Source: a candidate division WOR-3 bacterium
Lineage (GTDB): Bacteria > Hydrothermota > Tepidihabitantia > Tepidihabitantales > JAOUPE01
DNA length: 64,000 bases
Direction of reading: 5' to 3'
NCBI GenBank assembly: GCA_039801565.1
Contig: JBDRUX010000002.1
Location: 332 to 64,331 of the forward strand
Positions 22,145 to 62,914 of the stretch are shown here, piece after piece (positions within the stretch are counted from its first letter, which is position 1; each line of letters starts with the position of its first letter). The notes under the pieces were generated by a model. It saw only the letters and a list, made by a program, of their open reading frames with translations, was not told where the DNA came from and searched no databases. Position numbers and translations under genes: made by a program.

Positions 22145-22427
22145 GTTCCTTTCAACCGGAAATTTTTTAAAGATAAAATAAGAATTTCTTTTAACTATTA
22201 GAAATTTAAATAGTAGTTTACCCGGTAAAAGTAGTTTAGGTATAAGAGAGACTTGGTATTGCCCTTTGGTTTTTAATTACCCTTAAGTCTTATCTACGAT
22301 TTAACCCGTTCGCTCTTCTAAGATTTTATATTGCATATACTTATACCATTAGCCATTTTGTTTACTTTAATAATTGTATAAAAATTGAGTTATCGGTCTA
22401 CTTCCCAAATGGCTTTTCGGGCTATTC

Positions 22428-22631
22428 AGTAGGTAAGCCGGTGGGCTAGCCTCTGGGCAGTTCGGTGGGTTGACCACCCCCTTGCCTACCGGCTAGCCCG
22501 GGGGCTAGCCTATGGGCTAGGCTGCTCCATAGTCAACCAGTTTGCCAGCCATATAGCCTACTCGCTTGCCCGGTAGGTTGACCAGCGGATTACCAAGTAG
22601 ACTATCCAGAGGGTAGCCGGGTGGGTAAACC
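22428..22631. repeat. GC-rich degenerate tandem array with ~12-bp period (~17 units) containing three copies of the palindrome GGCTAGCC
   Basis: Units such as ggtgggctagcc / taccggctagcc / cgggggctagcc / tatgggctaggc / agccatatagcc / tactcgcttgcc. No open frame (stops and indels break every frame). Sits in a 730-bp gap between convergent genes. Confidence 0.6.
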
Positions 22632-22872
22632 GGAGGTTCGGTTAAGGAGCTGGTCATTAATTTAGTTTTTAATCAATCGCGGTATCGGCTTTTGCCTTTG
22701 ATATTGAAACCAATTAGAAGGTCGGTAAGGCAATTGTAGTGATGACAGAGTATAAAGTGGGCTTTGAACTAAATTAGAGATTCAATTCCAAACTTGTTGT
22801 AATGACTGGTTATTGGTGTTTAATTTAAGGCAAATTAGCCAATTTCCCAATCCCAAAATTGTAAAAGTTAAC

Positions 22873-34116: not shown

Positions 34117-34209
34117 CAATAAATTCTTTCTTGACTTCGGTTCAAAATTTTGGTATCTATTCTCATACAGTATTGTTTTATTTTTTTAAATTATAAAAAG
34201 GAGGTACTG

Positions 34210-35937
34210 ATGCAAAAACCAATGTGCCTACTCCTACTGGGATTAGTAGTAGGAATTAGTCTTGCCTCGGATGGAACACTTTGGATTGGCAAAAGCCGAC
34301 CCGAAGCGTTTTCCTGTCCAAATCCAACACCAACGCTAACTCAACTGCCAACGGGTGATAACCCTGACACTGATACCCTCTACTACGATGAGCGAACCGC
34401 GTATACTGCTTGGATTTACTACCGTGAGAATAATGGTTGGGGCGTTAAATTTAATGCCCCGGCTGACAATGGAACAATCACCGGTGCCTTGGTTTATCTT
34501 TGGAGTTCATCCTGGCCTGTTCCTGGTGGTAACCGGTTCAAGGTTCGGGTTGTGGATTCGGATGGACCCAACGGTGCTCCCGGCACTACCCTTTATGAAT
34601 CGGATATCGTTACCGGTAATCGTGGTCAATGGAATAATGTTCCAATGTCAGTACCGTTCACGAACCGCAACTTTTACATCTTCTATGTTCAAGTTGATTC
34701 TTACCCAATGTGTCCTGCCTTAGGCATTGACCGGTTTGATAATGCTCCTGATGGTGTAAAATGGCAATTGACCAGTGGTAGCTACTCTCAAGAATCGGAT
34801 CGGTTCGGTGAATGGCTAATTAGAGCCTTGATTGACTGGACCCCGCAGAATAATAATATGGGCACTCTTTTCTTCGGCAATATGCCAATTGAGACCTTAC
34901 CCAATATTAGTCTTCAGATGCGTGGAACTGTTAAGAACTTTGGTAGTCAACCGGCTGCGGCTGGTGTCCCAGTAAAGATGCAAATAACCGGTCCTTTGGG
35001 TTATGTCTATAACGACTTTGACCAGGCAACCACGGTTACTCTGCAAAGAGGTCAGACCCAGTTGATTACTTTTTCTCCAAATTGGCATGTGCCCGACACA
35101 ATGGGTAACTACACGATCAAAATCTGGACTGAACTGGCTGGTGATGAATATCCACAAAATGATACAATCACTCGTACCTTAAGTATTGGTCGTTGGATTA
35201 CTTATGCTAATTGGAATAATCCCTATTGGATTACTTGGGCGAGCCCAGAACGGGCGGTGGAATTCATTCCCGGAAATTTCGGACTAACCTATCCTTTCTC
35301 GATATCCCGAGTCAAGGCACAATTCTATCTCCATCCCCAACGGCCTTGGGATGACAGCCTTTTTAGTTTCAAAATTTATGGCAATGACGGCGCAACTTTA
35401 CTTTATCAATCGGATACTATAAGGTCACCAGGTAGTTCGACACAAACCCACGATGTTGTACCGCCAGTAGCAATAACTTCGGGTAACTTTTATGTGGCGG
35501 TTGCACCCCGCAGTTATAGTGGCTTTCCGTCCAGTTTAGCCGACGATTCGGTGCAAAACCATAGTTTTTACGGCGGAGCGGGTTCTTGGATACCGTGGCC
35601 GTATGGTGAACTCTTTATTGCGGCTGCGGTTAGACAAGGCGTTGGTATTGAAGAAAAGTCGAATCCGGCTTTTTCTCGGCCCAAACTGACTGTGACCAAT
35701 TATCCCAATCCGACGAACAATCTTATCCGTATCGAATGGCAGATTCCGGAAAAAGGTAATCTCCGGATCGACCTTTTCGATGTCACGGGACGAGAAGTGA
35801 AAACGATTTATGACAATTACGCCGAAGCTAATGGCATCATCTACATGCGAACTGAAGATTTAGCCGCCGGCGCTTATCTGATTCGTTTGCGTAATGGCAA
35901 AGAGACTGCGACTGCCAAACTATTAGTGCAAAAATAA
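34210..35937 (+). CDS. Secreted hypothetical protein with T9SS C-terminal sorting domain
   Basis: Start moved to the ATG at 34210 (RBS aaaggagg; signal peptide MQKPMCLLLLGLVVGISLA). C-terminal …NLIRIEWQIP…LRIDLFDVTGREV…GAYLIRL… is a T9SS CTD. Confidence 0.7.
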   Translation: MQKPMCLLLLGLVVGISLASDGTLWIGKSRPEAFSCPNPTPTLTQLPTGDNPDTDTLYYDERTAYTAWIYYRENNGWGVKFNAPADNGTITGALVYLWSSSWPVPGGNRFKVRVVDSDGPNGAPGTTLYESDIVTGNRGQWNNVPMSVPFTNRNFYIFYVQVDSYPMCPALGIDRFDNAPDGVKWQLTSGSYSQESDRFGEWLIRALIDWTPQNNNMGTLFFGNMPIETLPNISLQMRGTVKNFGSQPAAAGVPVKMQITGPLGYVYNDFDQATTVTLQRGQTQLITFSPNWHVPDTMGNYTIKIWTELAGDEYPQNDTITRTLSIGRWITYANWNNPYWITWASPERAVEFIPGNFGLTYPFSISRVKAQFYLHPQRPWDDSLFSFKIYGNDGATLLYQSDTIRSPGSSTQTHDVVPPVAITSGNFYVAVAPRSYSGFPSSLADDSVQNHSFYGGAGSWIPWPYGELFIAAAVRQGVGIEEKSNPAFSRPKLTVTNYPNPTNNLIRIEWQIPEKGNLRIDLFDVTGREVKTIYDNYAEANGIIYMRTEDLAAGAYLIRLRNGKETATAKLLVQK

Positions 35938-43518: not shown

Positions 43519-43736
43519 TATAGTGAATGATATAAGACCTTTGGCTCAAGTGGTGACTGATGGTTACTCGGTTCAACAAACATTGGATGGTGGATATACC
43601 ATTGGCGACTGGATCTTAGTGTGTCGATGGATGTGATGAAACACAGAAGAAGTTAACCTCAGAAACCAATCCCCTGACCGGCTTTCCAATCACTCTTCCA
43701 ACTAACTTATCTTCTAACTTCAGAGTTATTCTTCTT

Positions 43737-43898
43737 GCCAACCTATCCGTCAACTTGCAAATCAATATCCGAACTGGCTTGCAAACCTTTCTTCAAACCA
43801 AATCCCTAAGCAACCGATTGGGCAAACCTAAGACCTAACTCCGATACTGTCCCCTATACCGCCTACAGGGTAGCCAGGGGCTAGCCCCGGGCTAGCCC
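43737..43898. repeat. Second degenerate 9-13-bp-period array ending in two GGCTAGCC palindromes, related to the 22428-22631 array
   Basis: …agggtagccaggggctagccccgggctagccc (compare 22603 agggtagccgggtgggtaaacc); recurring (A)ACC/TCC/GCC ends every 9-13 nt; ORF-free 740-bp gap. Confidence 0.45.
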
Positions 43899-44137
43899 TT
43901 AATGATATGTCGAGATGATATAAGGCTCTGAAAATAAATAAGTTAACTGAAATTTAGAAAAATTAATGTTTTTAGGGAAAATTTCCATTCGTCTAAGATA
44001 GAAAAGTTACCTACCAAATACTCCTGAAGGATAAACAGAGCATAATTAAACTTCCTGAATGCTAACCTGCTTGGATTATTAAGAGTTAGTTTACTCCTAT
44101 ACTTTCTGAAGTTGAAAACTCAAAAAATAAATTTTAA

Positions 44138-44165
44138 TTGACTTTCGAGGTTTATTTAATATAAT
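44138..44165 (+). promoter_or_regulatory. Near-consensus sigma70-type promoter upstream of tldD (TTGACT-N16-TATAAT)
   Basis: ttgact ttcgaggtttatttaa tataat, about 95 nt upstream of the ATG at 44260. Confidence 0.45.
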
Positions 44166-44259
44166 GAATAACTTGGTGAGATAAAACTTTAGCAAGATAT
44201 TATCAATGCAAAAATTGCCGATGTTCGAACAAGTCACAACTTTATACTAAGGAGGCGAT

Positions 44260-45696
44260 ATGGCTAAAGATTTAATCAATTTGGCATTAGATACCGTTAA
44301 AGCTTTGGGCGCAACTTATGCCGATGTCCGGTTGATTCGGCACCAGACCGAACAGATTACGGTGAAGAATCAAAGGGTCGAGGTTTTGAAACGGGACCAA
44401 GATGCTGGTATCGGTATTAGAGTGATTGCCCAAGGCTGTTGGGGTTTTGCCGCTACGGCAAAATTGGATAAAAAGAGTATCGAGCGAACTGCCGGTTTAG
44501 CGGTTAAGGTAGCCAAGGCAAGTGCCCGTCTGAAGGATAAGGATGTGATGCTCTCTGAAGCTGAGAAGGTAACCGATACTTATCAGACCAAAATTGAAAT
44601 TGACCCATTTTCGGTGTCACTCGATGAAAAGATAAACTTGCTTTTAAATGTCAACCAGACAATGCTAAAGGTGAAAGGAATTAAAGTGTGTAATTCTGAA
44701 CTCTATTTTTCCAAGAAGTATCAGGTTTTTGGTTCGACCGAGAATTCTTATATTGAGCAGACGATTTATCAGTCCGGTGGTTACATTGATGCTACTGCGG
44801 TTAAGGGTAATATTACTGGCGAACGCTCCTATCCAGGAATGCACGGTCATTACAAATGTGCCGGTTACGAATTTATTAAAAGTCTGGATTTTTTAGCCAA
44901 TGCCGAGCGGGTGGCAGAAGAAGCGGTCGCTTTGACCAAAGCCAAAGAATGCCCGAAGATTGAAACAACTGTTATCCTTGATGGTTCAATGGTGGCAATT
45001 CAGGTGCACGAGACGGTTGGTCATCCAACCGAACTGGACCGTGTCTTGGGGACCGAAGTGAGTTTAGCCGGTAAGAGTCATCTTACACTGGATAAATTAA
45101 ATAGTTTTCGGATGGGTTCGGATATTGTGAACATAACCGCTGATGCTACAATTGAAGGTGGTTTGGGTTCATTTGGTTATGATGACGAAGGGGTTCGGGC
45201 ACAAAGGGTTTATTTGATTAAAGATGGTATCTTTTGCGGTTATTTGACATCAAGAGAGACCGCCAAGGTTTTAAATCAACGCAGTAATGGCACGATGCGG
45301 GCGGATTCCTGGGCATCAATCCCTTTGATTAGAATGACCAATATCAACTTAGAACCAGGAACCTGGAAATTTGAAGACTTATTAGCGGATACCGAAGATG
45401 GAATCTATTTTGAATCGGCTGGTAACCCATCAATTGACGATAAGAGACTTAATTACAACATCCATTCCGAGATTGGTTGGATTATTAAGAATGGGAAGAG
45501 GACCGAAATGATCAGGCGACCGAGTTTTACTGGGATATCTTATGAGATTTGGCGCAATTGTGATGCGATATGTTCTAAGGATTACTGGGAAGTTTGGGGC
45601 GTGCCGAATTGCGGCAAAGGTGACCCTGGACAAACAATGCAGGTGGGACATGGTGCTGCCCCGGCAAGATTTCGTAAGATTAAAGTTGGTAGTTGA
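44260..45696 (+). CDS. tldD: TldD-family metallopeptidase
   Basis: HETVGHPTELDR HExxxH motif; TldD/PmbA fold; 478 aa. Confidence 0.85.
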   Translation: MAKDLINLALDTVKALGATYADVRLIRHQTEQITVKNQRVEVLKRDQDAGIGIRVIAQGCWGFAATAKLDKKSIERTAGLAVKVAKASARLKDKDVMLSEAEKVTDTYQTKIEIDPFSVSLDEKINLLLNVNQTMLKVKGIKVCNSELYFSKKYQVFGSTENSYIEQTIYQSGGYIDATAVKGNITGERSYPGMHGHYKCAGYEFIKSLDFLANAERVAEEAVALTKAKECPKIETTVILDGSMVAIQVHETVGHPTELDRVLGTEVSLAGKSHLTLDKLNSFRMGSDIVNITADATIEGGLGSFGYDDEGVRAQRVYLIKDGIFCGYLTSRETAKVLNQRSNGTMRADSWASIPLIRMTNINLEPGTWKFEDLLADTEDGIYFESAGNPSIDDKRLNYNIHSEIGWIIKNGKRTEMIRRPSFTGISYEIWRNCDAICSKDYWEVWGVPNCGKGDPGQTMQVGHGAAPARFRKIKVGS

Positions 45697-45708
45697 CAGG
45701 AGGAAAAG

Positions 45709-47040
45709 ATGTTAGATAAGAATCGAACCCGTGAGTTATTAGAAATCGGGCTAAAGAGTGTTAAAGCCGACCAGATTGAAGTAGGCATCTTTTCAACCGA
45801 ACGAGGAACTACGAGGTTTGCTAATTCAATAATCCATCAGAATATGGTGGTGGAAAGTCCTTATCTCTGGGCAAGGGTGATCTTAAAAAATAAGATTGGC
45901 GGTATTGCTACCAAGGAACTGCATCCTGAAGGAGTTAAAAATGCAATGCAAAAAGCCTTGGAATTGGCAGAACATCAGAAACCAGATAAGGAATTCAAAA
46001 GTTTGCCTAAGCCCGGAGCAAAAAGACGGATTGGTTTGAAAAAAGAGCCAGTCTTTGTGACCCCGGAAGAACGGGCAAAGGCGGTTGAGCAAATCGTTAA
46101 GGTCTGTAAAAAAGATAATCTCGAAGCCGCGGGTGTGATTCATACTAGCCGTTATAGTTTGGGTGTGGCTAATTCCTTAGGAATCTTCAATTACGATTGG
46201 TCAGCCGATACTTGGGTTTCAATCACTGCAATGTCAGACGATAGTTCGGGTTATGCGAGCGCTTATGTAAAAAATTTCGATGATGTTGATTTTACTGCCT
46301 TGGCAGAAAAGGCAGTGGAAAAAGCAATCGCCAGTAAGAATCCAATCGAAATTGAACCGGGTAAATATACGGTTCTATTAGAAGAACCAGCAGTAGCTGA
46401 ACTTATCTCTTTCTTAGACTTTTATGAATTCGGTGCTAAAGCTTATGACGAAAGGCGTAGCGTTATCTCAAAAAAGATGGGGAAAAGAATAACCGGTAAG
46501 AATATCACAATTATTGAAGATGCCTATCATCCCAAAACGATTGGTTTGCCTTTTGACTTTGAAGGAGTACCGAAGAAGAAAGTCGTGATTATTCAAAACG
46601 GAATTGCCAAGAATGTGGTCTTTGATTCATTCTACGCCCAAAAATTGGGCAAAAAGAATACCGGTCATGCTTTACCCCAACCTAATACAATGGGTCCTTT
46701 ACCATTGAACCTTGTGATTAAACCAGGTAAGATTCCAAGAGCCAAGATGATCGAAGCGATTGAGAAAGGAATTCTGGTTACTCGGTTCTGGTATACCCGA
46801 ATGGTTGACCCGGATAAGACCTTGCTAACTGGAATGACCCGAGATGGGACTTTCTTGATTGAGGATGGAAAGATTACTAAAGGTTTAAAGAATATGCGGT
46901 TTTTGATTAATGTCTATGAGACCTTAAAATCGGTTCGGCTGATTTCAAAAGAGACGGTACTTTGTGGTGAAGGTATTTCTGTGGTAGCACCAGCAATGGT
47001 GATAGATAACTTCAATTTCGCCAGCAAGACTCATTATTAG
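45709..47040 (+). CDS. pmbA: TldE/PmbA-family protein
   Basis: TldD/PmbA family without the HExxxH motif; partner of tldD. Confidence 0.8.
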   Translation: MLDKNRTRELLEIGLKSVKADQIEVGIFSTERGTTRFANSIIHQNMVVESPYLWARVILKNKIGGIATKELHPEGVKNAMQKALELAEHQKPDKEFKSLPKPGAKRRIGLKKEPVFVTPEERAKAVEQIVKVCKKDNLEAAGVIHTSRYSLGVANSLGIFNYDWSADTWVSITAMSDDSSGYASAYVKNFDDVDFTALAEKAVEKAIASKNPIEIEPGKYTVLLEEPAVAELISFLDFYEFGAKAYDERRSVISKKMGKRITGKNITIIEDAYHPKTIGLPFDFEGVPKKKVVIIQNGIAKNVVFDSFYAQKLGKKNTGHALPQPNTMGPLPLNLVIKPGKIPRAKMIEAIEKGILVTRFWYTRMVDPDKTLLTGMTRDGTFLIEDGKITKGLKNMRFLINVYETLKSVRLISKETVLCGEGISVVAPAMVIDNFNFASKTHY

Positions 47041-47237
47041 AAATGAATTAAATTATCGAAATTGTAAAGAAGAGGAGGTCGCAAGCACTTGTTGAACCTG
47101 GCGTTTTAGCCAAAGTCGAATTTTCACACACTCTCTATCGTCAATAAGGATTGGTCGCTTAAAAGACTTTGAGGATAGCGGTAATTTACGAATAACTTTT
47201 GATTCAAAAATTAACACTTTGCTCAAAAGTAGATGAT

Positions 47238-49808
47238 TTATTCAAGAAGGACTAATTTGCTAATCAATTTTGCCTTATTCTCTTTTTGTTTCGTAACTTC
47301 ACTTGAGGAATAGATTAAGATAAAATATACCCCTTTGTTTAATTTCTTGCCCTTAGAATCTTTGCCGTTCCAGATGATTTTATCGTTACTCAATGAGAAT
47401 TCGGTAACTTTTTTACCTAAGGCATTGAAGATTTTCAAAACAGCACCTTCTTCAGTTTCAATATAAAATCTTTTGCCCAAAGTCGGATAGATTTTTGATT
47501 TACCCTCTCGCTTTTCATCTTCGATTCCGTAAATATTGTCTTTTATCATCCCTAATCTGCTTTCTCTTTCTATATAGACATATAAACGATTATTGGAAAA
47601 GTCAAAGCGACGTCTTTTATGCAAATGTGCCCGACTCATTTCAGGAAAAGTTGCCACTATCTGATTGGTTTGACAATCAACAATCTTTACTGGTTCAAAC
47701 CCAATATGGGTATCAAGGGGTGAAAAATATAACTTATTGTTTAACCTGTTCCAAAATAGACCTGTAACAAAGCCCGGTTGTCCGCCCAATATCGAATCGC
47801 ATAGGTTATTGGTATTACAATCCCACACATATATTTTATTGACATTTGAGGGGGAATGATAGTCCAATGCCAGGTATAATTTATCATCAATCTCGTTATA
47901 TTCACTACGGGTGAAAGTTCGGGGGTAGACAAAAGGTAAATAACCAATCAGGCTATCATTAAATCGGTCATACATTCCTTTTCCAGCATAAACCCGTAAG
48001 TCGCCATGAGTCCGAAAGTGAATGTCGCCACGCAAAATGTTGGTATCGCGCTTTATTACGGTGTCTTTAAAGCAATCTATTACCACCATACCACCATCAT
48101 TGCCAATCATATAAACTTTATTGGTTAAAGAATCAAATTCGATATCCCCTTCTTGGTCAGCAGAATGGGTTGTATTCAATATCTTTACAATTGAATCACG
48201 AGAACAATCAATTACATAACTTATTGGCCAGCCATAATAAGAAATATCCAGGGTGTATAGTTTATCAACGATTGGGCTATAAGCAAAGCGATAATATGAA
48301 ATTAAACGACCAAGCGTTTTAATCACACTGTCGGTTCGGCTATCCAAGACCGCGATATAATGAGGATAGGAGACATAAATTTTGTTATGGAATGGAGCGA
48401 AACCAAAGTCAGCTAAACCATAACCTCTGGGCGCAACTTTAACCTGATGGATTGGTCTTTGATTCTCGCTGTTAAAAACAAAGATGTAAGGACGATAGTT
48501 ATTCGCGCAGTAAAGTTTATGCTCAAGGGGATTTAATAAGATACCATTTACACATTGGGTACCATTGTAGATAACTCCCTTGACAGCATGGTTTAAACAA
48601 TCAAAGACAATGATTGCCTCACCCATACCTCGGTCAATATAAATTTTTCCCCTAATTAAATGAAGAAATGGTCTAGCCTCACCACCCATTTCATCGGGCA
48701 ATCCATGACGACTCACTGTATGAGTTGATAAGTCAATAACGATTAAGGTATCGTCACTAAAGCAGTATAATTCATTTTGCGGTGGGTAAAAACGGAGGCC
48801 GGGTCCGGTCATCACAGACACAAATATTGAATCAATTATTCTACCAGAAAGGATGTCAACAATGTAAACATATCTTGAACCGGAATAAGTGTAGTAAATC
48901 TTTTGGTCTACTGAGTTAAGGTCAAATCCGAAGCCGTCTTCAGGTGAATTGGCAATGTCAATCCGTTGAATCTTTTGATTGGTCCAGCAATCAATCTCAT
49001 AAATTGAGATGTCGCAACTTTCGGTGCTAACCGAAACATAGAGCCGATTTCTTATTGTATCTATCTCATACTCGTTTTGGTCAAAAATTAACTCAGGCAA
49101 AGGAATTGTGGTAAGAATGCTATCAGCATTACAATCAATGACCACTAACCCTATGGTATCAGAAATTTTAACTCGCCCAATTGCATACAGACAGTTGTTA
49201 ACCGGATTCCATTTTAATGATGGGTAGTAATCGTAAAAGTAACTAAAAATTCTGAATCTTACTGTCTTGGTAATTTGATGGCTATTGCCATCAATCACAT
49301 AGATAAGGGTATCCAAGTCTGAACTAGCACCGTTATTTTCTTTTACCAGATAGACTTTGTTACTAATTGGACTGACACAAAACTGGGCTTCGTTTCCGAA
49401 GCCAAAACTCCTGCGTGGAAAAGGAATGATACCAATAGTTTGCCGGGTCCGACAGTCAACAATATGTAGACTATCATAATATGAACGATAAGGCTTGCAC
49501 CAGATATAAAGACAATTATTACTCGGGTTCCATTCCAACCACCCGGGACAACTTGCTTGGTCGCCATTAATTCGGATTGGCTCGACCTTTTCATCGTTTT
49601 CACAGTCAATGGTTACAAAGGTTTCATTAAAGCCAATAAGATAAATTTTGTCATCAATTGAGTTCCAAACCATTTTGCTTGTTCCGCAGGTTCCACTAAA
49701 GCTATCAGGCATATAGAGGTAACCTTCAAACCACTGGGCGGTTGATAAAACAGGGGTTTGTAAGCAAAAAACAAATAGATGTAGAAACAAAATTTCCAAT
49801 TTTTTCAT
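47238..49808 (-). CDS. YVTN-type β-propeller repeat secreted protein with T9SS C-terminal sorting domain
   Basis: Signal peptide; about 13 repeats of Y(V/I)(I/V)DCxTxx(I/V) (YVIDCSRDSIV, VVIDCFKDTVI, YVWDCNTNNL…); C-terminal KIFNALGKKVTEF…KGVYFILI CTD. Confidence 0.7.
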   Translation of the reverse strand: MKKLEILFLHLFVFCLQTPVLSTAQWFEGYLYMPDSFSGTCGTSKMVWNSIDDKIYLIGFNETFVTIDCENDEKVEPIRINGDQASCPGWLEWNPSNNCLYIWCKPYRSYYDSLHIVDCRTRQTIGIIPFPRRSFGFGNEAQFCVSPISNKVYLVKENNGASSDLDTLIYVIDGNSHQITKTVRFRIFSYFYDYYPSLKWNPVNNCLYAIGRVKISDTIGLVVIDCNADSILTTIPLPELIFDQNEYEIDTIRNRLYVSVSTESCDISIYEIDCWTNQKIQRIDIANSPEDGFGFDLNSVDQKIYYTYSGSRYVYIVDILSGRIIDSIFVSVMTGPGLRFYPPQNELYCFSDDTLIVIDLSTHTVSRHGLPDEMGGEARPFLHLIRGKIYIDRGMGEAIIVFDCLNHAVKGVIYNGTQCVNGILLNPLEHKLYCANNYRPYIFVFNSENQRPIHQVKVAPRGYGLADFGFAPFHNKIYVSYPHYIAVLDSRTDSVIKTLGRLISYYRFAYSPIVDKLYTLDISYYGWPISYVIDCSRDSIVKILNTTHSADQEGDIEFDSLTNKVYMIGNDGGMVVIDCFKDTVIKRDTNILRGDIHFRTHGDLRVYAGKGMYDRFNDSLIGYLPFVYPRTFTRSEYNEIDDKLYLALDYHSPSNVNKIYVWDCNTNNLCDSILGGQPGFVTGLFWNRLNNKLYFSPLDTHIGFEPVKIVDCQTNQIVATFPEMSRAHLHKRRRFDFSNNRLYVYIERESRLGMIKDNIYGIEDEKREGKSKIYPTLGKRFYIETEEGAVLKIFNALGKKVTEFSLSNDKIIWNGKDSKGKKLNKGVYFILIYSSSEVTKQKENKAKLISKLVLLE

Positions 49809-49853
49809 ATCTGAACCCTTTTTATTTTATCATGGCGTCTGGTATCACCGTTT

Positions 49854-51212
49854 TTAGTTTTTAATTAATTTTCCTTTGAATTCATAATTCTTGGTTGTCA
49901 ATCGGTAGAAGTAGATTCCGCTTGAAGCATCTGACCAATTCAGAGAATATTCTTTATCGCCACTGCTGATTAGAAATTCTCGTGTCAGTTTGCCGGAAGC
50001 GTCGTAAATTTTTAGTCGTGCTACGGTCTTCAATACCTCAGAGAAGCTAATTAATATTTGGTTACGGGATTTCTGGGTAACTCGAACCGGTTTCGGTAAA
50101 AGTTGGGAAGCCGTAGTTTGACCACCTTCAGATTCAGTAACTGGTGGTTCATAAAATCCGACCGCGAAATGATATGCTCCAAAAGTTGCCCAAATTCCTC
50201 TTTTTGGTCCCCAGGACTATCCCAATAACCAAATGCCAAATCAGCTCCTCGACCAACTCCATAATTTGGGTCGGGTGGGTCAAAATCGTCATTCCACAGA
50301 TCGGCGCTTGGGTGATACTGGTGGAAATCATTTCGTGGCCAATTATTACTACTTACACCTTCGAAAGCATAAAGCCTGTCGGAATTCGATGGTACTTTTT
50401 CTGACCCTAAAATTCCATCGCCAGCCAGTGAACCACCAGAACGGACATAGCCTGGCACTACATGTTTTTGTGTCCAATTATTTCGCGCTATATCATAAAC
50501 GTAAAATAATCGTGATTCTCCACCTCTTAAGGCAAAAATCTGATTCCCATTATAAGCATCAGGCCAAAATGCCAGGTCGGCCCCATAACCATGAACAAAA
50601 TCAACTAACTTTTCCCAATGGCTTTTTACAGGATTTCCTCTCGGACCCGCTGGTTTTAGCAGTCGGCGATAGACCCAAAAGCCATCATTTCTTTCAGCAT
50701 CAGAAGCCCACCCGCCTAAGTAGTATAAGTTAATATAGGTCCCATCGGTGTTACCGGTTTTGAGACTTAAGCCATGACCTTTATTACGGTTATGAGGAAC
50801 CGTATCCAAAATTGTCCAAGTATTAGTAGGTATGTCGTATTCATAGATATGACCAGTTCTTTGGTGGTCACCGCTTATGTCATAGGGAATAGCAAATACC
50901 TTGTATTCCTGAGGGATTGAGTTTTGATTATGCCAAGCACAAATTGCCGAACCCCATTCGGGAATATCGGACAACGGCTCTAAGGTTTGCCATTCGTTAT
51001 TAGCTTGGTTATAAGCTCGGAATACAGTATTTTCTTCATGTCGAAATAAGACATAAAGACAACCTCGGTCGTTTGCACTCCTTATCCCGAAAGTCATCGC
51101 GGTGGATTCGTCTTGGGGATATGGATGGGTATTAGTTGGATAATACCATACACCTTGCTGACTAAAGACCAAAATTGGAAAAAGCAATAATATATATATA
51201 TATATATCGCAT
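49854..51212 (-). pseudogene. Kelch-like β-propeller T9SS cargo gene disrupted at two simple-sequence tracts (candidate phase-variable or decaying gene)
   Basis: Best-supported ATG (51210-51212, SD gaagggagggg) is out of frame with the body because of the (TA)8.5 tract at 51191-51207. The body frame (ORF 50051..51187) then stops. An intact T9SS CTD (…LKIYDASGKLTREFL…GIYFYRLTTKNYEFKGKLIKN*) lies at 49854-~50200 in the -1 frame, and the switch point is the A5/T5 run at 50201-50205. Confidence 0.65.
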
Positions 51213-51592
51213 AGCCCCTCCCTTCGTTATTGTTTTGATTGGCATTTGTAATGCCTTAATAAAGATACCAGACGCCATTGGTCTTATATAAAGTATAAGA
51301 CAATTTGTATTTGTGTCAAGGAAAATTTTTGAAGCACTCGGATTTGTAAGCAAGGGTATAATGTATTAGACTAACCTTAAATTACTCAAGGGTGTAAAAC
51401 CTTTGACAATGCCTGAGTTATTTATTTATAAATCAGAGGAGCTGTGTGATTAGTGCGAGCAAAAATTTTTTCTATTCAAGGTTTTGATAACGGAAAGCGT
51501 ATTATCGTCCTACCTCTTGGGCGTCAAAAAAGTTTGATATAAAATTTATTCACTTTATAAAAAATTTTATTAGTTAAACGATTTGTTTAAAA

Positions 51593-53074
51593 TTACAACC
51601 CTGCGATTTCGGCAAAATGAAGTCGGTAGATGGCAAAGCGTAAGGCTAAAGGAAATAACCTTGGCTTTTTGAATAACGACCAAAAAATCAAATTCCAAAA
51701 ATGGAACCGATCTGGCTTAATTAAGCCAATAATTAGAAATGATTTAACCAGAGCTTTAATATAGTAGAAACGGAAACCGGTGGGTTTTCGTTTTGGTGGC
51801 TTATAATTTTTAAAAAACTCTTTCACCCTGGGATAATAACTTTTAGCTGAATAGAGTAGTTCCAAGACACCTTTATAACCTTGAATTAAAGGCTCACTTC
51901 CCATCTTAGGAATGATATTAGTCGCAAACGCAGTGTTGTTACCACCGATATCTTCATTCTCTACCAATCTGCCCTCCTGTTTCAGTCGTTCGTAAAGTTT
52001 TGAACCGCGTGGAGCATTGAGCAAACCAACCATTGCAGTTACAATGCCGCTTTTTTGAATGAATTTCACCAGACGTAAAAATATTGATGCGTCATCGTTG
52101 TCAAAACCAAGGATGAATCCACTATCCACGACAAAACCAAAACATTGCAGTTTCTTTGCTGCCTGCAACAAGTCACGACCTTTATTGGGTATTTTATTAC
52201 ACTCGGCAAGACTTTTTTCGTTTGGAGTTTCAATTCCAACAAAGAGGACATCAAAACCAGCTTGAATCAACATCCGCATCAATTCTTCGTCATCAGCCAA
52301 ATTGATTGAGACCTCGGCGGAAAAAGAGAACGGATAATTATGTGCCTTCATCCATTCGGTTATTGCCGGTAGGATTTCCATTTTTAGTCCTTGCTTATTG
52401 CTAATGAAATTGTCATCGGCTAATGTCACGCCACCTTTCCAACCCGCTCGATAAAGAGAATTGAGTTCGCCAATGATTCGCTCTTTGCTCTTCATCCGAT
52501 GCTTACGACCAAAAAGCGTAACAATATCACAGAACTCACAGTCATAAGGACAACCGCGCGATAGCTGAATTATCATTGTTGAATATTTTTTCATATCAAT
52601 CAAGTTCCATAATGGGTAGGGTGTATTATTCAAATCCGGTTTTTGAGTAGTCGTGTAAATGTGCTTTGGTGTGCCGTTGGCTAAATCGGCAAGAAACTCA
52701 GGTAAAGTTATTTCGGCTTCGTTAAGAACCAGATAGTCAATCTCAGTAAAGTTTTCCGGCTCCGAGGTGAAAAGTGGTCCGCCGGCAACTATCTTTTTAC
52801 CGAGTTTTTTGCATCGTTCGACAACTTGTTTGACCCCTTGGCGTTGGACAACCATTGCGCTAATAAAGACATAATCCGCCCATTCCAAATCCGAATCTTT
52901 TAATTGGGTTACATTCATATCAATTAAGCGTTTTTCCCAATCTTTGGGTAACATTGCCGCAACCGTTAATAAACCCAACGGCGGCATCGTTGCTTTTTTT
53001 GAGATAAATTTAAGTGCCCGGCGGAAACTCCAAAAAGTATCCGGACAAAATGGATAAACCAAAAGTATTTTCAT
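51593..53074 (-). CDS. B12-binding domain radical SAM protein (DUF4070-type C-terminus)
   Basis: N-terminal B12-binding Rossmann-like domain; CPYDCEFC (CxxxCxxC) radical-SAM cluster motif. Confidence 0.75.
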   Translation of the reverse strand: MKILLVYPFCPDTFWSFRRALKFISKKATMPPLGLLTVAAMLPKDWEKRLIDMNVTQLKDSDLEWADYVFISAMVVQRQGVKQVVERCKKLGKKIVAGGPLFTSEPENFTEIDYLVLNEAEITLPEFLADLANGTPKHIYTTTQKPDLNNTPYPLWNLIDMKKYSTMIIQLSRGCPYDCEFCDIVTLFGRKHRMKSKERIIGELNSLYRAGWKGGVTLADDNFISNKQGLKMEILPAITEWMKAHNYPFSFSAEVSINLADDEELMRMLIQAGFDVLFVGIETPNEKSLAECNKIPNKGRDLLQAAKKLQCFGFVVDSGFILGFDNDDASIFLRLVKFIQKSGIVTAMVGLLNAPRGSKLYERLKQEGRLVENEDIGGNNTAFATNIIPKMGSEPLIQGYKGVLELLYSAKSYYPRVKEFFKNYKPPKRKPTGFRFYYIKALVKSFLIIGLIKPDRFHFWNLIFWSLFKKPRLFPLALRFAIYRLHFAEIAGL

Positions 53075-53124
53075 TATTAATTATACTACCTTATGTTTAA
53101 TAAGTCAATGAAACAACCCAAGAG

Positions 53125-54612
53125 TTAAGGAAAGATGCGCTTCCCCGCTTTATAGACCTCAAGGATTTGAAAATCTAAGGTCTCGAAAGGGTCAGCCGAT
53201 AAAACCAAGAAATCAGCCAAAAAATTAGGTTTTAACACCCCAATCTCATTTTCCTTAAAGATAGCATAAGCACCATTTTTGGTGAATAGCTGGAAGGCTT
53301 CCCGATGGGTTAGCCGGTGCTCTAAATTTGGGTGATTTACTGCTGATTTGATACCAAGCACTGGGTCAAGCGGCGTAATTGGCGAATCCGAGCCACCACA
53401 AAGGGTTATTCTGGTATCAATTAACTTCCGATAGGGGTTAGTAAGTTTGTAGCGTTCACCCAAGCGCTCCGCATACATTTTGTCCGAACCGCCCCAGTAA
53501 TATTCAAATGCTGGCTGAACCGAAAGGATAATGCCAAGTTTAGCTATTCGTTCAATCAGATTATCATTTAGGAGTTCGGCATGCTCAATCCGATGACGCA
53601 ATAAATTTTCTTGGAGAAATTTCTCATAGCAACTGACCACTTGGTCAATCGCGCGGTCGCCAATCGCATGTACTGCAATCTGAAGTCCGGCTGCGGAAGC
53701 CTCTTGGAAAAAATTGAGCAATTCTTCATCCTGAAAATAGAGAATTCCTTTATTGCCCGGCTCGTCTTCATAATCTTCGGTCAGTGCTGCAGTGCGAGAA
53801 CCAAATGAACCGTCAATCAAAATACAACCGCCAATTCGAGTAAGTCCGAGCGCTTTGACTCGTTCGACATCTTGCGTTTGGTAAAAAGGAACCACTTCGA
53901 TTGGTAATTTATCCTTTACTTTAAGCAATAACTGGAAAGAGTCATCGTCCGGTGCATCTGAACCAATCATTGCGACGATTGTCGTTATACCTTTGACAAT
54001 GGCTTGTTTGCAGGCTAAAGATATCGCTTCAATTTTAATATCCGGATTTAAGAATTGCCGAAATTTTTTGGCCGCTATTTCAAATGCCTTGCCACGAACC
54101 ACACCGCTGGGAATTTTGTAATGGTCAAGTTCGACTCCCACTTCTAAACCACTACCAAAAACGAACTCCAATCCTTTGGTATTAAGAACCGCTGAGTGAC
54201 CATCAATTCGATACAAAATTACTGGAATATCCTTGATGACTTTATCCAATTCAATTCGAGTCGGAAAACGCTTTTCCTTTAAATTTTCCGGTTCAAGATT
54301 ATAACCAATAAGAAATTTAAGCCCTTTATTTTTGCTTCGACCAGTGAGTAATAAATCGAATACTTCTTCTAAGGATTGGGCAGTAGAAAAATTTGGCAGT
54401 AGGAACTGCAAACCAGTACCAAGTATATGGACATGAGAGTCAATGAAACCAGGAATAATGAATTTGTCTTCAAAATCTATTTTGGGCTCATCAGGGATTG
54501 AAATAGATTCGTCAGTGACTTTTAAAATCTTTGTGTCTTTGACCAAAAGATTCCTAAATACCCCATTTTCTTCATCAAAAGTATAAATTCTTTTGGCCGA
54601 AAAGATTGGCAT
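53125..54612 (-). CDS. Amidohydrolase-family metal-dependent hydrolase
   Basis: GFIDSHVHILGTG (HxH) start of TIM-barrel amidohydrolase; 495 aa. Confidence 0.65.
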   Translation of the reverse strand: MPIFSAKRIYTFDEENGVFRNLLVKDTKILKVTDESISIPDEPKIDFEDKFIIPGFIDSHVHILGTGLQFLLPNFSTAQSLEEVFDLLLTGRSKNKGLKFLIGYNLEPENLKEKRFPTRIELDKVIKDIPVILYRIDGHSAVLNTKGLEFVFGSGLEVGVELDHYKIPSGVVRGKAFEIAAKKFRQFLNPDIKIEAISLACKQAIVKGITTIVAMIGSDAPDDDSFQLLLKVKDKLPIEVVPFYQTQDVERVKALGLTRIGGCILIDGSFGSRTAALTEDYEDEPGNKGILYFQDEELLNFFQEASAAGLQIAVHAIGDRAIDQVVSCYEKFLQENLLRHRIEHAELLNDNLIERIAKLGIILSVQPAFEYYWGGSDKMYAERLGERYKLTNPYRKLIDTRITLCGGSDSPITPLDPVLGIKSAVNHPNLEHRLTHREAFQLFTKNGAYAIFKENEIGVLKPNFLADFLVLSADPFETLDFQILEVYKAGKRIFP

Positions 54613-54613
54613 A

Positions 54614-55927
54614 TTACAACTTAGGTACGATTTTGGCTACTGCTTCGATATGATATGTTTGGGGAAATAAATCAACCAATTCGATTGCCGAGACTTCGTA
54701 GCCTATATGGTCAAAAATTGCTAAATCGCGGGCTAAGGTTGTCGGATTACAACTGATATAGATTATCTTTTTGGGTCTTAATCCAGCGATTCCTTCAATC
54801 AATTCTTTACCACAGCCTTTGCGCGGCGGGTCAAGGATAACCGCATCAACCTGTTGGAAGTTTTTTATTCCTTGCTCAGCTGGAGCGGCAATAAATTCAA
54901 CATTATTGATTGTGTTTATCCTCAAACTCTCATTAGCATCAAGCACTGCGATTCGATTAATCTCAATACCCGTGACCTTATCAACAAAATCCGCCAGCGG
55001 AATTGTAAAGGTTCCGACTCCGGCAAATAAGTCTAAGACTCGCTCTTGGCCAGTCGGAGCTAATAATTTGATTACTTGCTTCACCAATGTTTCAGTTTGG
55101 GCGGTATTGACTTGAAAGAAAGAACCCGCCGAAATGCGGAATCGTTTATTTAAGACCGTTTCAAAATAATAATCCTGACCGATTAGTTTCTTATATTCAT
55201 CACCCAAAATTCGATTAGTTTTAACTGGATTGCGATTCTGGACAACGCCGACAATGCCGTCAAAACTTTTGGGTAATTCTTCGTAGACTCCTCGGGCAAG
55301 ACTGGCTTCTTGCGTCACGATTATGACAAGATATTGATTGGTATTAAATCCTTTTCGGATTATAATGTGCCGGATATTGCCCGAATGTTTAATCTCATCA
55401 TAAACTGTTTCACCGGCTTTTTTAATTGAGTTCTTTAAAAAACTTTTGATTTCATCAAAAGTAGTGGGATGGAGCAGACATTTTTCAATATCAATCACTT
55501 GATGAGTCTGACGCTTGAAGAAACCAATTTTATGAGGCGGTGCTAATGGATATTGGGTCTTATTACGATAATGCCATTCCGAAGGCGCAGGTAATGGATT
55601 CTTCGCAGGAAAAAACACCTTGCCAATTCTTTGTAGAGTTTCATTAGCAATAAGTTTCTTGACAACAAGTTGGTAATCATACTTGAGATGTTGGAGTTGG
55701 CATCCACCGCAAGATAGGAAATGGGGACAAAGGGGCGTAACCCGGAAGGGGGAGGGTTCGATGATTTCTTTGATTTGCCCAATGTAGTAGTTTTTCTTTT
55801 TCTTTTTTATTGCGATTAAAACCCGGTCTTGCGGAACTGAATACGGAACAAAAACCTTGACACCATTATAGTTGCCAATGCCATCGCCACCGTAAACAAT
55901 TTTATCAATCACAAGTTCAATTAACAT
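54614..55927 (-). CDS. rlmD: 23S rRNA (uracil-5-)-methyltransferase RlmD/RumA family
   Basis: TRAM N-terminus, [4Fe-4S] Cys cluster CPHFLSCGGCQLQH, class I SAM-methyltransferase C-terminus. Confidence 0.8.
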   Translation of the reverse strand: MLIELVIDKIVYGGDGIGNYNGVKVFVPYSVPQDRVLIAIKKKKKNYYIGQIKEIIEPSPFRVTPLCPHFLSCGGCQLQHLKYDYQLVVKKLIANETLQRIGKVFFPAKNPLPAPSEWHYRNKTQYPLAPPHKIGFFKRQTHQVIDIEKCLLHPTTFDEIKSFLKNSIKKAGETVYDEIKHSGNIRHIIIRKGFNTNQYLVIIVTQEASLARGVYEELPKSFDGIVGVVQNRNPVKTNRILGDEYKKLIGQDYYFETVLNKRFRISAGSFFQVNTAQTETLVKQVIKLLAPTGQERVLDLFAGVGTFTIPLADFVDKVTGIEINRIAVLDANESLRINTINNVEFIAAPAEQGIKNFQQVDAVILDPPRKGCGKELIEGIAGLRPKKIIYISCNPTTLARDLAIFDHIGYEVSAIELVDLFPQTYHIEAVAKIVPKL

Positions 55928-60310: not shown

Positions 60311-62914
60311 TTATTTCAGATATATCACTTTGCCCCAAAAACTCTTTTCATTTTTGGGAAACGAGATATGGTAAAAGTAAATTCCGGCGGGAACTGGACT
60401 ATTGGTTAAATCCACACCCCGCCACACTAATTCCGGCTCGCTTGATGTGATGCGATAGATACAGCGACCATTCAAATCATAAATTTCCAAGTCAACATTT
60501 TGGGTCATCTTAGCAGTAATGCTAAAATGAATTGCTTTAGAAAACGGTTGGGGAAAGACTTGGATTTTTGGTTCGGTTTTAGTATTGGTAATTTCAACAA
60601 TACCGGTTAACCAATTAAGACAGAGTTCCATAAATTGAACCCGAGTCAAAAATTGGGGATAGGTCGGTGGACGATTGATTGCCTCAAAACCGAACCCCAA
60701 ATAGATAAGACGACTCTCGGTAACTGGGTCAGCATAATAGATGCCAGCGCCCTGATTGGCAATCGTATCATAGACTAAGAAGATATGGGAAAAGGAATCG
60801 GATGTGATTTGGTCTCTTGAGTTCTGATTATTAGCCCCACCGACACCGATAGTTGCACTGCCCGAGAAGTTGGTACCGAAGGGGTCAAACCGATTACCAA
60901 AGACAAAATAACCGCTCTGATTGGGTTGGATAAATCGAGCGTGCAAGACATCTTGATAAAAAGCGGTTGCCCCTAACTCCTGTCCGATGTTCTGACCAGT
61001 CAAAAAGAGCTTACCACCAGTAGCCAGTAAAGCAGTGATGCTATCCTGGTCATTACTGTCTAAGGTATTATTTATTGCATCACCGGTATACCAGACAACC
61101 GTGGACAATCGAAATCTTGGTACGGTGTGAATTGGCACCGGACCTTGTAAGCCTCGTCGCCAGACAACATAGCTGAGATTCAGACTATCAAAAGTTGTGG
61201 TGTAATACTGCTCATAGCGATGGAGCGAATCATCATTGACCAATAAAAGATGGGCAGGATTAAGGGCAAAAATTAGATTGGTATCACCGTAGATAATTAC
61301 CGAATAGGTTCGATTCGGATAGGGGAGAGCAGGCAATACCAGAATCCTAAATATAGTATCAACTAAGGTTAACTGGAAATTGCCGATTGTATCCGAATTG
61401 GTCGAGTCAAAAGGAATTGTATCTGTGCCAAGATAGGCTTTCAATCTGGCTTGAATCGGTAAGCCAGAGGTTGAATCCGAAAGATTACCAGTAATATTAC
61501 ACCAATGATAAGTTTTAATCGAAAGTCTTGCGGTATCATTTTTTGGATTGGAATCATTCAAGGTAGTGAAACTTATCACATTTAACATTCCAGGTGAAAG
61601 TAACTGTCCGGATAAGATATTGATTGTCTCTGAGGCAAGAAATGGTATTGGTCCGGTATTAGAAAATATCGTATCTTCATAACCATTATAACTTAATATA
61701 GTGGTGACCGGAACTGAATTTAAGCCTTGAGAACCAAAGTTGGTTATAACTGCTTTAAGGTTTAAGGTATCACCAGGCAGATGGATTCTTGGTCGGTTTG
61801 GCTCATAAATACTAAGGACTCCGGCATCATAGGAATAGGTTGGTGTAACAAAGACATCCATCCCCATAAAGACTAAATAAGTTGAGACCCAGGTCTGGTC
61901 ATTGGTTGAAGGTTCGTTCCAGGTAGCAGGGATTCCACCATCATCATCACGGTCTTGCAATAGTAAGGTATCGGTCAAGATATGATGGATTGACCAGAGG
62001 GTATCGTTATGGGTAATATTGGCACAGGCGCGATAACCATTTGCCAACCAGATATTCCAAGAGTTATTCCATTGCCCGACCGGATAAAAGAAAGGCAAGG
62101 AATCTTTATAGGTTCGAATCCAATTTTTACCGGTTATCGTATCTTCGAGCCAGATTGAATTACCAACTCCCCAGATTGCTGTGCCACCGGACATTGCCCA
62201 GTTGCCCGAGGCAAGACGATTTCTCGCATCCGCTTCAATCCAAGTTCGCACCCGATTGCCATAAGTCAATGCGGTATCTTTGGCAATCGGATTATTTCTT
62301 TCTTTGGCATAATGATAAAGCATTCCGGCGGCAAAAGCGGTGACAAAGGCATTTAAGGAATTCGTTAATGGTAATGGATGGCTGTACATATATTCTAAGC
62401 AGGTATCAGTGTAAGGAATGAATGAAGAGTCGCCATAGACCTGACGATATTTCCTTTCGGCGAAGAATGCTAAACCGCAATTCCAGACACAATAATAGTC
62501 TGGTCCTTCGCGATAAGCTGGATAGCGCAGCACATAAAGCCAAGCTCGACGGATATTGGTCCGGTAGTCATCCCGACCAGTCAGTTCATACCACCTTGAC
62601 CAGACCCAAATCGCCTCTTGGGTATTATCGGTCTCAATGATATTGGGTAGATGTTCAGCTTCGATAATACCGCCAAAATCCGGTGATGAAGAATCGGAGA
62701 CCTGATACCGAGCAACAAAATCCGCGGTCTGCTTTATCTCGTAAAGGTAATTAAAACGGTCAATGGCTTTTCCAAAAATCTTGGGCGGAGGGGAAAAACG
62801 GGGTTCAAAATTCTTTTCAAAGAGTTCAATTTCTGATTCTGACCAAGGGGTTGTAGCGAATACGGAACAAATTGAGAAAATTAGAAATAGGGTAAAATAT
62901 TTAAAGGATTTCAT
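60311..62914 (-). CDS. Large secreted hypothetical protein with T9SS C-terminal sorting domain
   Basis: Signal peptide MKSFKYFTLFLIFSICSVFA; C-terminal …LEIYDLNGRCIYRI…AGIYFYHI… CTD. Confidence 0.7.
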   Translation of the reverse strand: MKSFKYFTLFLIFSICSVFATTPWSESEIELFEKNFEPRFSPPPKIFGKAIDRFNYLYEIKQTADFVARYQVSDSSSPDFGGIIEAEHLPNIIETDNTQEAIWVWSRWYELTGRDDYRTNIRRAWLYVLRYPAYREGPDYYCVWNCGLAFFAERKYRQVYGDSSFIPYTDTCLEYMYSHPLPLTNSLNAFVTAFAAGMLYHYAKERNNPIAKDTALTYGNRVRTWIEADARNRLASGNWAMSGGTAIWGVGNSIWLEDTITGKNWIRTYKDSLPFFYPVGQWNNSWNIWLANGYRACANITHNDTLWSIHHILTDTLLLQDRDDDGGIPATWNEPSTNDQTWVSTYLVFMGMDVFVTPTYSYDAGVLSIYEPNRPRIHLPGDTLNLKAVITNFGSQGLNSVPVTTILSYNGYEDTIFSNTGPIPFLASETINILSGQLLSPGMLNVISFTTLNDSNPKNDTARLSIKTYHWCNITGNLSDSTSGLPIQARLKAYLGTDTIPFDSTNSDTIGNFQLTLVDTIFRILVLPALPYPNRTYSVIIYGDTNLIFALNPAHLLLVNDDSLHRYEQYYTTTFDSLNLSYVVWRRGLQGPVPIHTVPRFRLSTVVWYTGDAINNTLDSNDQDSITALLATGGKLFLTGQNIGQELGATAFYQDVLHARFIQPNQSGYFVFGNRFDPFGTNFSGSATIGVGGANNQNSRDQITSDSFSHIFLVYDTIANQGAGIYYADPVTESRLIYLGFGFEAINRPPTYPQFLTRVQFMELCLNWLTGIVEITNTKTEPKIQVFPQPFSKAIHFSITAKMTQNVDLEIYDLNGRCIYRITSSEPELVWRGVDLTNSPVPAGIYFYHISFPKNEKSFWGKVIYLK

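Follow-up and report, generated by a model that had tools for sequence, protein, structure and literature searches.

In this study, we analyzed a gene (gene 1) whose reading frame is interrupted at two simple-sequence tracts, together with its downstream partner (gene 2), in a 64-kb stretch of DNA from a metagenome-assembled genome (MAG) of candidate division WOR-3 (GCA_039801565.1, contig JBDRUX010000002.1, positions 332 to 64,331). The whole stretch of 64,000 nt is referred to as the window, and all coordinates are window positions unless another locus is named. The product recorded for gene 1 is MEO0113990.1, and the predicted cargo proteins discussed here belong to the type IX secretion system (T9SS), with a C-terminal sorting domain (CTD). 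The features of the locus, in the direction of transcription, are as follows.

51225..51215, minus strand: Shine-Dalgarno (SD) sequence GAAGGGAGGGG, read in the sequence and kept as CGAAGGGAGGAGCT-ATG in two related loci (L004 and L005).
51212..51210, minus strand: ancestral ATG start codon; the homologous ATG of the orthologues opens MRYI...
51212..51162 (stop codon 51164..51162), minus strand: abortive open reading frame (ORF) of 16 codons, MRYIYIYIIAFSNFGL and stop, which is the present-state reading from the ATG.
51207..51190, minus strand: (AT)9 microsatellite, 18 nt, in signal-peptide codons 3-8 after ATG and CGA; OFF state.
51187..50051, minus strand: body ORF of 378 amino acids (aa), initiated at a TTG without SD, in a frame other than that of the ATG.
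51187..50206, minus strand: predicted kelch-type six-bladed beta-propeller body (Kelch_4 match and folds of the P0002 structure model).
50205..50201, minus strand: A5 run, read as carrying a 1-nt deletion (-1 frameshift), in the last propeller blade; identical in locus L001, one frame in orthologues.
50200..50051 (stop codon 50053..50051), minus strand: out-of-frame tail of the body ORF, by ORF reading.
50200..49854 (stop codon 49856..49854), minus strand: continuation in the -1 frame, with the predicted propeller strands RGIWATFG and VGFYEPP, a linker and the T9SS type A CTD.
About 50063..49857, minus strand: T9SS type A CTD in the -1 frame (TIGR04183 / PF18962).
47238..49808, minus strand: gene 2, an uninterrupted predicted beta-propeller T9SS cargo of 856 aa (ORF and profile matches).

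A first-pass annotation of this DNA, made from the letters alone, had described the interrupted gene, and the SD that it named and its coordinates for the ATG, the end of the body frame, the A5 run and the -1 frame all hold. The ORF list and a table of reading frames by repeat number also confirmed its statement that the body now starts at a TTG without a ribosome-binding site. The repeat and the out-of-frame ATG were correctly recognized, but the tract had been counted as (TA)8.5 instead of (AT)9; it is the sole dinucleotide repeat of at least five units in the window. According to the frame table, the ATG joins the body only at n = 7, 10 or 13, giving MRYIYI(YI)nLLLFPILVFSQQ..., and only then is a signal-peptide-like region present in the repaired gene (MR, a hydrophobic core and VFS/QQ, aligned by eye with the orthologous N-terminus MRYIILALLPLLVFS). 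One additional unit does restore the frame, as had been proposed, but the peptide quoted for it contained one more Tyr-Ile and belongs to n = 13, whereas n = 10 gives MRYIYIYILLLFPILVFSQQ.

When both lesions are repaired, gene 1 is an ORF of 453 codons with a CTD at residues 385-451. The domain exceeded the cutoffs of both TIGR04183 (38.2 bits, cutoff 23) and PF18962 (28.9 bits, cutoff 27) in the repaired protein and lies in the -1 frame only, in agreement with the earlier assignment of a T9SS CTD running through 49854 in that frame. The two frames meet at the A5 run, as the same annotation had noted, but not at the boundary between body and CTD: the frameshift falls at about residue 337 of the repaired protein (...GYWDSPGDQK/RGIWATFG...), in the last blade and approximately 47 residues before the CTD. 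The body itself matched Kelch_4 in Pfam (22.6 bits, cutoff 21.6). A T9SS-secreted, kelch-type six-bladed beta-propeller would be the best explanation of the gene 1 product. Gene 2 is its conserved downstream partner, and the pair was also found in three other loci (L004, L007 and L011). A consensus scan found no promoter-like site in the 45-nt spacer between the two genes, and gene 2 is probably co-transcribed with gene 1.

Relatives were sought in 5.8 billion proteins, which yielded few matches. No relative was detected among genome species representatives by protein profile search, a 23-nt junction probe had 0 matches in genome contigs, and a search of metagenome contigs added one new lineage only (L010); the gene 1 family is rare. 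Four copies are intact (P0002, P0003, P0004 and P0005). Two of them, P0002 (445 aa) and P0003 (454 aa), share 56-57% identity with the repaired window protein and align with it end to end, and all family-invariant residues are kept in the latter. The N-termini of the intact orthologues read MRYIILALLPLLVFS... or MRYLLLALLPLLVFS..., and their C-terminal parts run ...GYWDSSGVQRRGIWATFG... directly into the CTD in a single frame, ...Q(K/R)RGIWATFG included. Because the intact orthologues start with MRYI... and read ...RGIWATFG... through to the CTD, both lesions of the window break an ancestral ORF, and the earlier claim that they split one ORF, to be repaired in the manner proposed, is borne out. 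At the DNA level, the orthologues possess the same SD and ATG, and all of them have the codons TAT ATA (Tyr-Ile) as a proto-repeat where the window has (AT)9.

The structure model of P0002 was all-beta and of moderate quality (predicted local distance difference test, pLDDT, 66; predicted template modelling score, pTM, 0.64), and its best matches in the PDB were six-bladed kelch propellers, galactose oxidase and propeller lectins. The site of the window frameshift corresponds to strands 329-337 and 345-349 of the model, in the last blade. Since the frameshift precedes the RGIWATFG and VGFY strands, part of the predicted propeller would be lost as well as the CTD.

We then compared the AT tract between near-identical genomes, with allele lengths taken from assembled contigs. 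In addition to the (AT)9 of the window, the following alleles were found.

(AT)9: L013, a contig of the Logan assembly of SRR27730018, 100% identical to the window over 3,418 nt.
(AT)12: L001 (GCA_965649045.1), which differs from the window over 16,265 nt by 1 mismatch and one 6-nt gap.
(AT)14: L002 (GCA_039801525.1), 99.5% identical to the window.

The 6-nt gap is the AT tract itself and is the only indel between the window and L001 in 16.3 kb. Thus, the repeat number varies (9, 12 and 14) at 99.5-99.99% flanking identity, always by whole units, and the AT tract is hypermutable and behaves as a slipped-strand hot spot. Because exactly the same tract was recovered in the Logan assembly, (AT)9 is independent of the assembler. 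All three alleles put the ATG out of frame and are OFF; no ON allele exists among these three on record, and the 90% protein cluster of the window product comprises truncated products only. Mechanistically, (AT)n would have grown from the conserved TAT ATA (Tyr-Ile) codons early in the signal peptide, and replication slippage would alter n by whole units. At the in-frame repeat numbers (7, 10 and 13) the tract would encode (Tyr-Ile)n within the signal peptide, so that it would act mechanically as an on/off frameshift switch of the type known from Helicobacter pylori oipA.

The second lesion is of a different nature. The A5 run is identical in the window and L001, the two assemblies covering the site, and the contigs of L002 and L013 end before it. 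In a sister lineage with 94-96% identity (L003), the homologous place reads GATAAAAAAAGAGG with an extra C 12 nt upstream, and removal of this C gives DSPGDKKRGIW in frame. Thus, the window state is best read as the loss of one A from a short run (A6 to A5), that is, a fixed 1-nt deletion in a short, common homopolymer: A5 runs number 171 and T5 runs 129 in the window, which also contains 129 A/T runs of 6 to 8. Such a run is too short to serve as a switch. The phase-variation proposal of the first-pass annotation therefore stands for the AT tract as a slipped-strand hot spot, although with no ON allele, and not for the A5 run as a second switch. The deletion would remove two blade strands and the CTD, and the product of an AT allele, even of one in frame, would then be misfolded and unsortable. 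From the GY(W/Y) codons to AGA-GGA, the distance in intact genes is 21 nt; it is one nucleotide shorter (20 nt) in the window and L011 and one longer (22 nt) in L003. As a separate observation, three independent frameshifts are located in this 21-nt A-rich linker before RGIWATFG (window 50200..50222; L003 about 3480..3510; L011 about 1225..1250), which may be a mutational hot spot.

The orthologue of gene 1 was found to be broken independently in four other lineages. First, in L003 (2752..4954) the promoter, the upstream arm of an inverted repeat described below, the SD, the start codon and the AT tract were all lost by a deletion between two CCCAAGA direct repeats; its gene 1 carries a second, internal deletion of about 241 nt and its own frameshift, and its gene 2 has a GAA-to-TAA stop. 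Second, L010 (3001..4347; 39% identity) has an in-frame stop at about codon 89. Third, L011 (263..1600) combines a TAG at codon 26 with the linker frameshift. Finally, P0013 (73% identity) begins with MRYIILVLL, without the repeat expansion, and is frameshifted after ...LPHG. P0016 was considered as a further linker truncation and rejected; it ends in frame, probably at a contig end.

To look at past selection, dN/dS (the ratio of nonsynonymous to synonymous substitution rates) was calculated between the window and its relatives. For the gene 1 body against L003, the value was 0.22 in the true frame and 0.7-1.5 in shifted-frame controls; gene 2 and a radical-SAM neighbour gave 0.20 and 0.08, respectively. 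The value for gene 1 against L002 was 0.41, from only 5 differences. The comparison with L003 reflects an older history, and gene 1 was therefore constrained until recently.

Based on these observations, gene 1 is probably a recently inactivated T9SS cargo pseudogene that carries a live microsatellite and two lesions of different kinds. Two frameshifts are present relative to P0002 and P0003, the A5 state is common to the window and GCA_965649045.1, and decay, which the first-pass annotation had mentioned as an alternative, is favored because the orthologues were broken independently in four other lineages. We consider the inactivation to be recent, since the ORF is otherwise clean and purifying selection acted during its past divergence. 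The comparison of orthologues suggested by that annotation is in line with its reconstruction of the gene, in that the repeat number varies and the intact orthologues have both the CTD and the MRYI start.

However, several points weigh against gene death. Apart from the two lesions, the 453-codon ORF contains no stop, and every family-invariant residue is kept. The contig of L002 ends 5' of the A-run, and the deletion has thus been seen in the window and L001 only. Three OFF alleles of three would be expected by chance with a probability of (2/3)^3 = 0.30; they are therefore compatible with a live switch and uninformative alone. Without selection, long dinucleotide tracts are seldom found in bacteria. 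In addition, a census of simple sequence repeats (SSRs; dinucleotide repeats of at least 5 units, A/T runs of at least 9 and G/C runs of at least 7) in about 122 kb of non-redundant loci placed five of the six SSR sites within -372 to +5 of the gene 1 ATG.

(AT)9: window, gene 1 start.
(TC)12: L010, 2788..2811, in the leader or a small upstream ORF (MSRVN...); (CT)3-4 in L007 and L008.
C8: L008, 5629..5636, upstream of gene 1.
A9: L004, 5771..5779, upstream of gene 1.
(TA)5: L004, 5908..5917, upstream of gene 1.

Such 5' clustering hints that there may be selection for switchability in the family and is the strongest argument for it. However, the two lineages with a long SSR (the window clade and L010) both carry another inactivating lesion.

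It follows that a live contingency locus has to be weighed, in which (AT)n is a selected phase-variation switch that still matters, either because A6 alleles exist in the population or because in-frame translation of gene 1 protects the operon mRNA against premature termination, thereby tuning the expression of gene 2. The tract lies in the 5' coding region and is long enough for slippage, its repeat number differs between near-identical genomes (n = 9, 12 and 14) while nothing else in 16.3 kb has gained or lost a nucleotide, and its position in signal-peptide codons is shared by the CT repeats of H. pylori oipA (PMC10564699). The recurrence of SSRs at the 5' end of the cassette in L010, L008 and L004, the purifying selection in the past, and an intact gene 2 that starts 45 nt downstream with no promoter-like site of its own point in the same direction. 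The Logan contigs of SRR27730018, which break off before and after the 3' part of gene 1, could also indicate population heterogeneity. However, ON and OFF alleles do not occur together among the three on record, all of which are OFF, and the rest of the ORF is not intact: the A5 lesion is present in both covering assemblies, would destroy the last propeller blade and sits in a run too short for useful switching rates. Moreover, both long-SSR lineages are inactivated a second time, and polarity on gene 2 is pure inference. We therefore regard a switch that is still in use as rather unlikely.

With regard to the contig ends, L013 (window 50852..54269) and L015 (window 44499..49822), both from SRR27730018, are 100% identical to the window and end flanking the 3' two-thirds of gene 1, and the contig of L002 also ends within the gene, at window position 50430. 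These ends may reflect strain heterogeneity.

A sequencing or assembly artefact, also raised by the first-pass annotation, would leave gene 1 intact in the organism and both frameshifts as SSR or homopolymer miscalls. Both lesions do lie in simple sequence, which is error-prone on some platforms, and the source is a MAG. However, (AT)9 was found exactly in an independent Logan assembly and A5 also in GCA_965649045.1, the differences between alleles amount to 3 and 5 whole units, not to one-unit stutter, and, despite roughly 430 A/T runs of at least 5 in the window, no other split gene was observed among those checked. ORFs defined from stop to stop account for 93% of the window. Pairs of adjacent or overlapping ORFs proved to be separate full-length families (Usp, MnmE, KhpB/Jag, YidC, RnpA, M50 peptidase and FtsK), and AspRS, AsnRS, LpxB, thiolase, MurF and two carboxylase subunits were also full length. 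An artefact is thus very improbable, and this part of the annotation was not supported. Least probable of all, to the point of being nearly negligible, is programmed recoding of a functional gene, with ribosomes slipping by -1 at C-CAA-AAA-G and/or by 2 nt on the AU repeat, for although a -1 slip of tRNA-Lys on A-AAA would yield exactly ...DQKRGIW... and a 2-nt shift on a dinucleotide repeat should keep codon-anticodon pairing, the site is not an X-XXY-YYZ heptamer, the region is in a single frame in the orthologues, the AT alleles fall in both wrong frames so that no single recoding event serves all, and shifts of opposite sign would be required in the broken relatives (the spacing is 21 nt when intact but 20 nt in the window and L011 and 22 nt in L003), which therefore rules out a conserved programmed frameshift.

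In addition to the two lesions, we found a pair of complementary segments around gene 1. The relevant features are as follows.

51319..51292, minus strand: sigma-70-like promoter match TTGACA-16-TATACT, agreeing with the consensus at 11 of 12 positions and ranking first within 47000..51700.
51278..51264, minus strand: 5' arm of the inverted repeat, ATGGCGTCTGGTATC, in the 5' untranslated region (UTR); perfect 15-nt complement of 49846..49832.
51255..51241, minus strand: 5' UTR hairpin GGCAT-tacaa-ATGCC, directly 5' of the SD and between the 5' arm and the SD, read by eye and by fold prediction.
49846..49832, minus strand: 3' arm of the inverted repeat, GATACCAGACGCCAT, downstream of the gene 1 stop and upstream of the gene 2 SD.

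The promoter is a consensus match only, and sigma-70 rules may not be those of WOR-3; if used, it would start the transcript approximately 5-7 nt upstream of the 5' arm. The two arms are the only copies of this sequence in 64 kb and form the longest exact gene-flanking inverted repeat among the 55 window genes. An inverted repeat of 15-20 bp was present in all seven lineages compared (the window, L004, L005, L007, L008, L010 and L011), with exactly two copies in each, one on either side of gene 1. In the seven-lineage alignment of the arms, 92% of cells pair, compared with 36-58% when the partner is slid, and 7 of the 20 arm pairs have changed on both sides; at one of the pairs, GC-to-UA arose in two separate clades. 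The pairing score was reached by none of 500 shuffles, a weak control with only seven related sequences, and stronger evidence for co-variation of the arms comes from the slide control and from double changes that arose repeatedly. Predicted duplex energies were -28 to -38 kcal/mol.

A hairpin of different sequence occupies the same leader position in the other clade (ATGGAT-aat-GTCCAT, ATGGGT-aat-ACCCAT and ATGGAT-aat-TTCTAT, the last with a G.U pair). Co-variation of the leader hairpins was read by eye only, as MAFFT mis-registered them. The local fold of the 5' UTR was not significant (z = -0.96), with no convincing local structure in the arms, and Rfam at gathering threshold identified only a tRNA-Gln in the whole window and nothing for the leader or the arms. 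U.G and G.U pairs also occur between the arms, which fits RNA rather than DNA identity. The inverted repeat is thus probably a long-range RNA stem between the 5' UTR and the intercistronic region that may take part in processing or stability, and this is favored over an inverton. An invertible DNA segment was judged unlikely, since gene 1 and gene 2 had one orientation in all assemblies spanning both; no recombinase family was found among the neighbouring genes examined. If truly an RNA stem, it would represent a new mRNA architecture and a more original lead than the AT tract.

A broader proposal would bring these elements together: the two-gene T9SS cassette might be a family-wide contingency locus in free-living WOR-3, with 5' SSRs seeded independently in different lineages and the gene repeatedly switched off or lost, and with the co-varying long-range stem and the leader hairpin linking the gene 1 state to how the operon mRNA is processed, stabilized or expressed. 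We consider this proposal speculative and doubtful.

Several other features of the window and its relatives were also noted. In addition to gene 1, there are four T9SS-CTD proteins in the same 64 kb (34150..35937, 22873..25587, 60311..62914 and gene 2 at 47238..49808), one of which is an S8 subtilase. All four genes are intact and have no simple repeat, and they provide circumstantial support for a T9SS in this genome. A transposase similar to ISNCY/IS481 (381 aa; 7636..8781, plus strand) scored 239.5 bits with NF033594, slightly below its cutoff of 250; an exact inverted repeat of 13 nt (AAAATGTCCCCTT) lies on both sides of it, which makes an intact insertion sequence element probable. Two stretches of approximately 730 nt (22145..22872 and 43519..44250) contain no ORF of at least 80 codons; their cores reach 63% G+C (window 41%) with repeated palindromic GGGCTAGCC(C) motifs, and beyond the GGGCTAGCC motif no further similarity between the two and no Rfam match was found. 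Two tandem paralogue pairs were observed, namely genes for pyruvate carboxylase subunit B/oxaloacetate decarboxylase alpha (30164..32035 and 32075..33613) and for a non-discriminating AspRS and AsnRS (11853..13157 and 13209..14492). In L002, 186 nt or so of a TrmA-like methyltransferase gene (window 55407..55594) are replaced by 10 nt (L002 5760..5771), so that two products (111 and 263 aa) take the place of one; this could be either an assembly gap or a real deletion.

Comparison with known systems places these findings in context. The leader and intercistronic arms resemble the RNase III stems flanking 16S and 23S rRNA, which are long-range processing stems enclosing an entire RNA unit: in both cases complementary segments of 15-20 nt lie upstream and downstream of one unit and show compensatory changes. 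However, the unit here is one protein-coding cistron (about 1.4 kb) of a two-gene operon, and the stem is a predicted one. The predicted protein is similar to the T9SS type A cargo of Bacteroidota, with a CTD above curated cutoffs (TIGR04183 / PF18962), a propeller body joined to it and a predicted signal peptide in the orthologues. In contrast with that cargo, the CTD is out of frame with the body, and T9SS machinery was not seen within the 64 kb.

In H. pylori oipA, the copy number of the CT dinucleotide repeat in signal-peptide codons sets the ON or OFF frame (PMC10564699). As in oipA (hopH), sabA and hopZ, the dinucleotide repeat studied here directly follows the start codon, in signal-peptide codons of a predicted exported protein, and its copy number differs between strains. 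On the other hand, unlike in oipA, the repeat is AT rather than CT, the host is a free-living uncultured WOR-3 bacterium rather than a host-adapted pathogen, the predicted product is a T9SS cargo rather than a porin-like outer-membrane adhesin, no ON allele is on record, and there is a second, non-reversible frameshift. A different precedent is provided by Mycobacterium leprae, in which TA copy number ranges from 11 to 13 between close strains at loci without coding function (PMC6449029). Like the TA/AT microsatellites used for strain typing that lie by or in pseudogenes of that species, the present tract varies in copy number between strains. In M. leprae such length varies neutrally beside pseudogenes, and variation alone therefore does not show a switch. 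Unlike the M. leprae genome, which is in massive decay, the 64-kb window is otherwise intact, and the tract is located exactly over the start and the signal peptide.

Slipped-strand switches are textbook knowledge in host-adapted pathogens and are hardly documented for uncultured environmental phyla or T9SS cargo; a full-text literature search turned up no description of SSR-based switching of T9SS cargo or within WOR-3. In the present case, public assemblies directly reveal the hypermutability of the tract. A repeat that varies in length over a start codon does not on its own amount to a working switch, and caution is warranted by the second, fixed lesion and by the repeated decay in relatives. 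With these signs of gene death as a tempering factor, the AT tract represents a known type of slipped-strand element, a dinucleotide repeat in signal-peptide codons, in an unusual host and secretion system.

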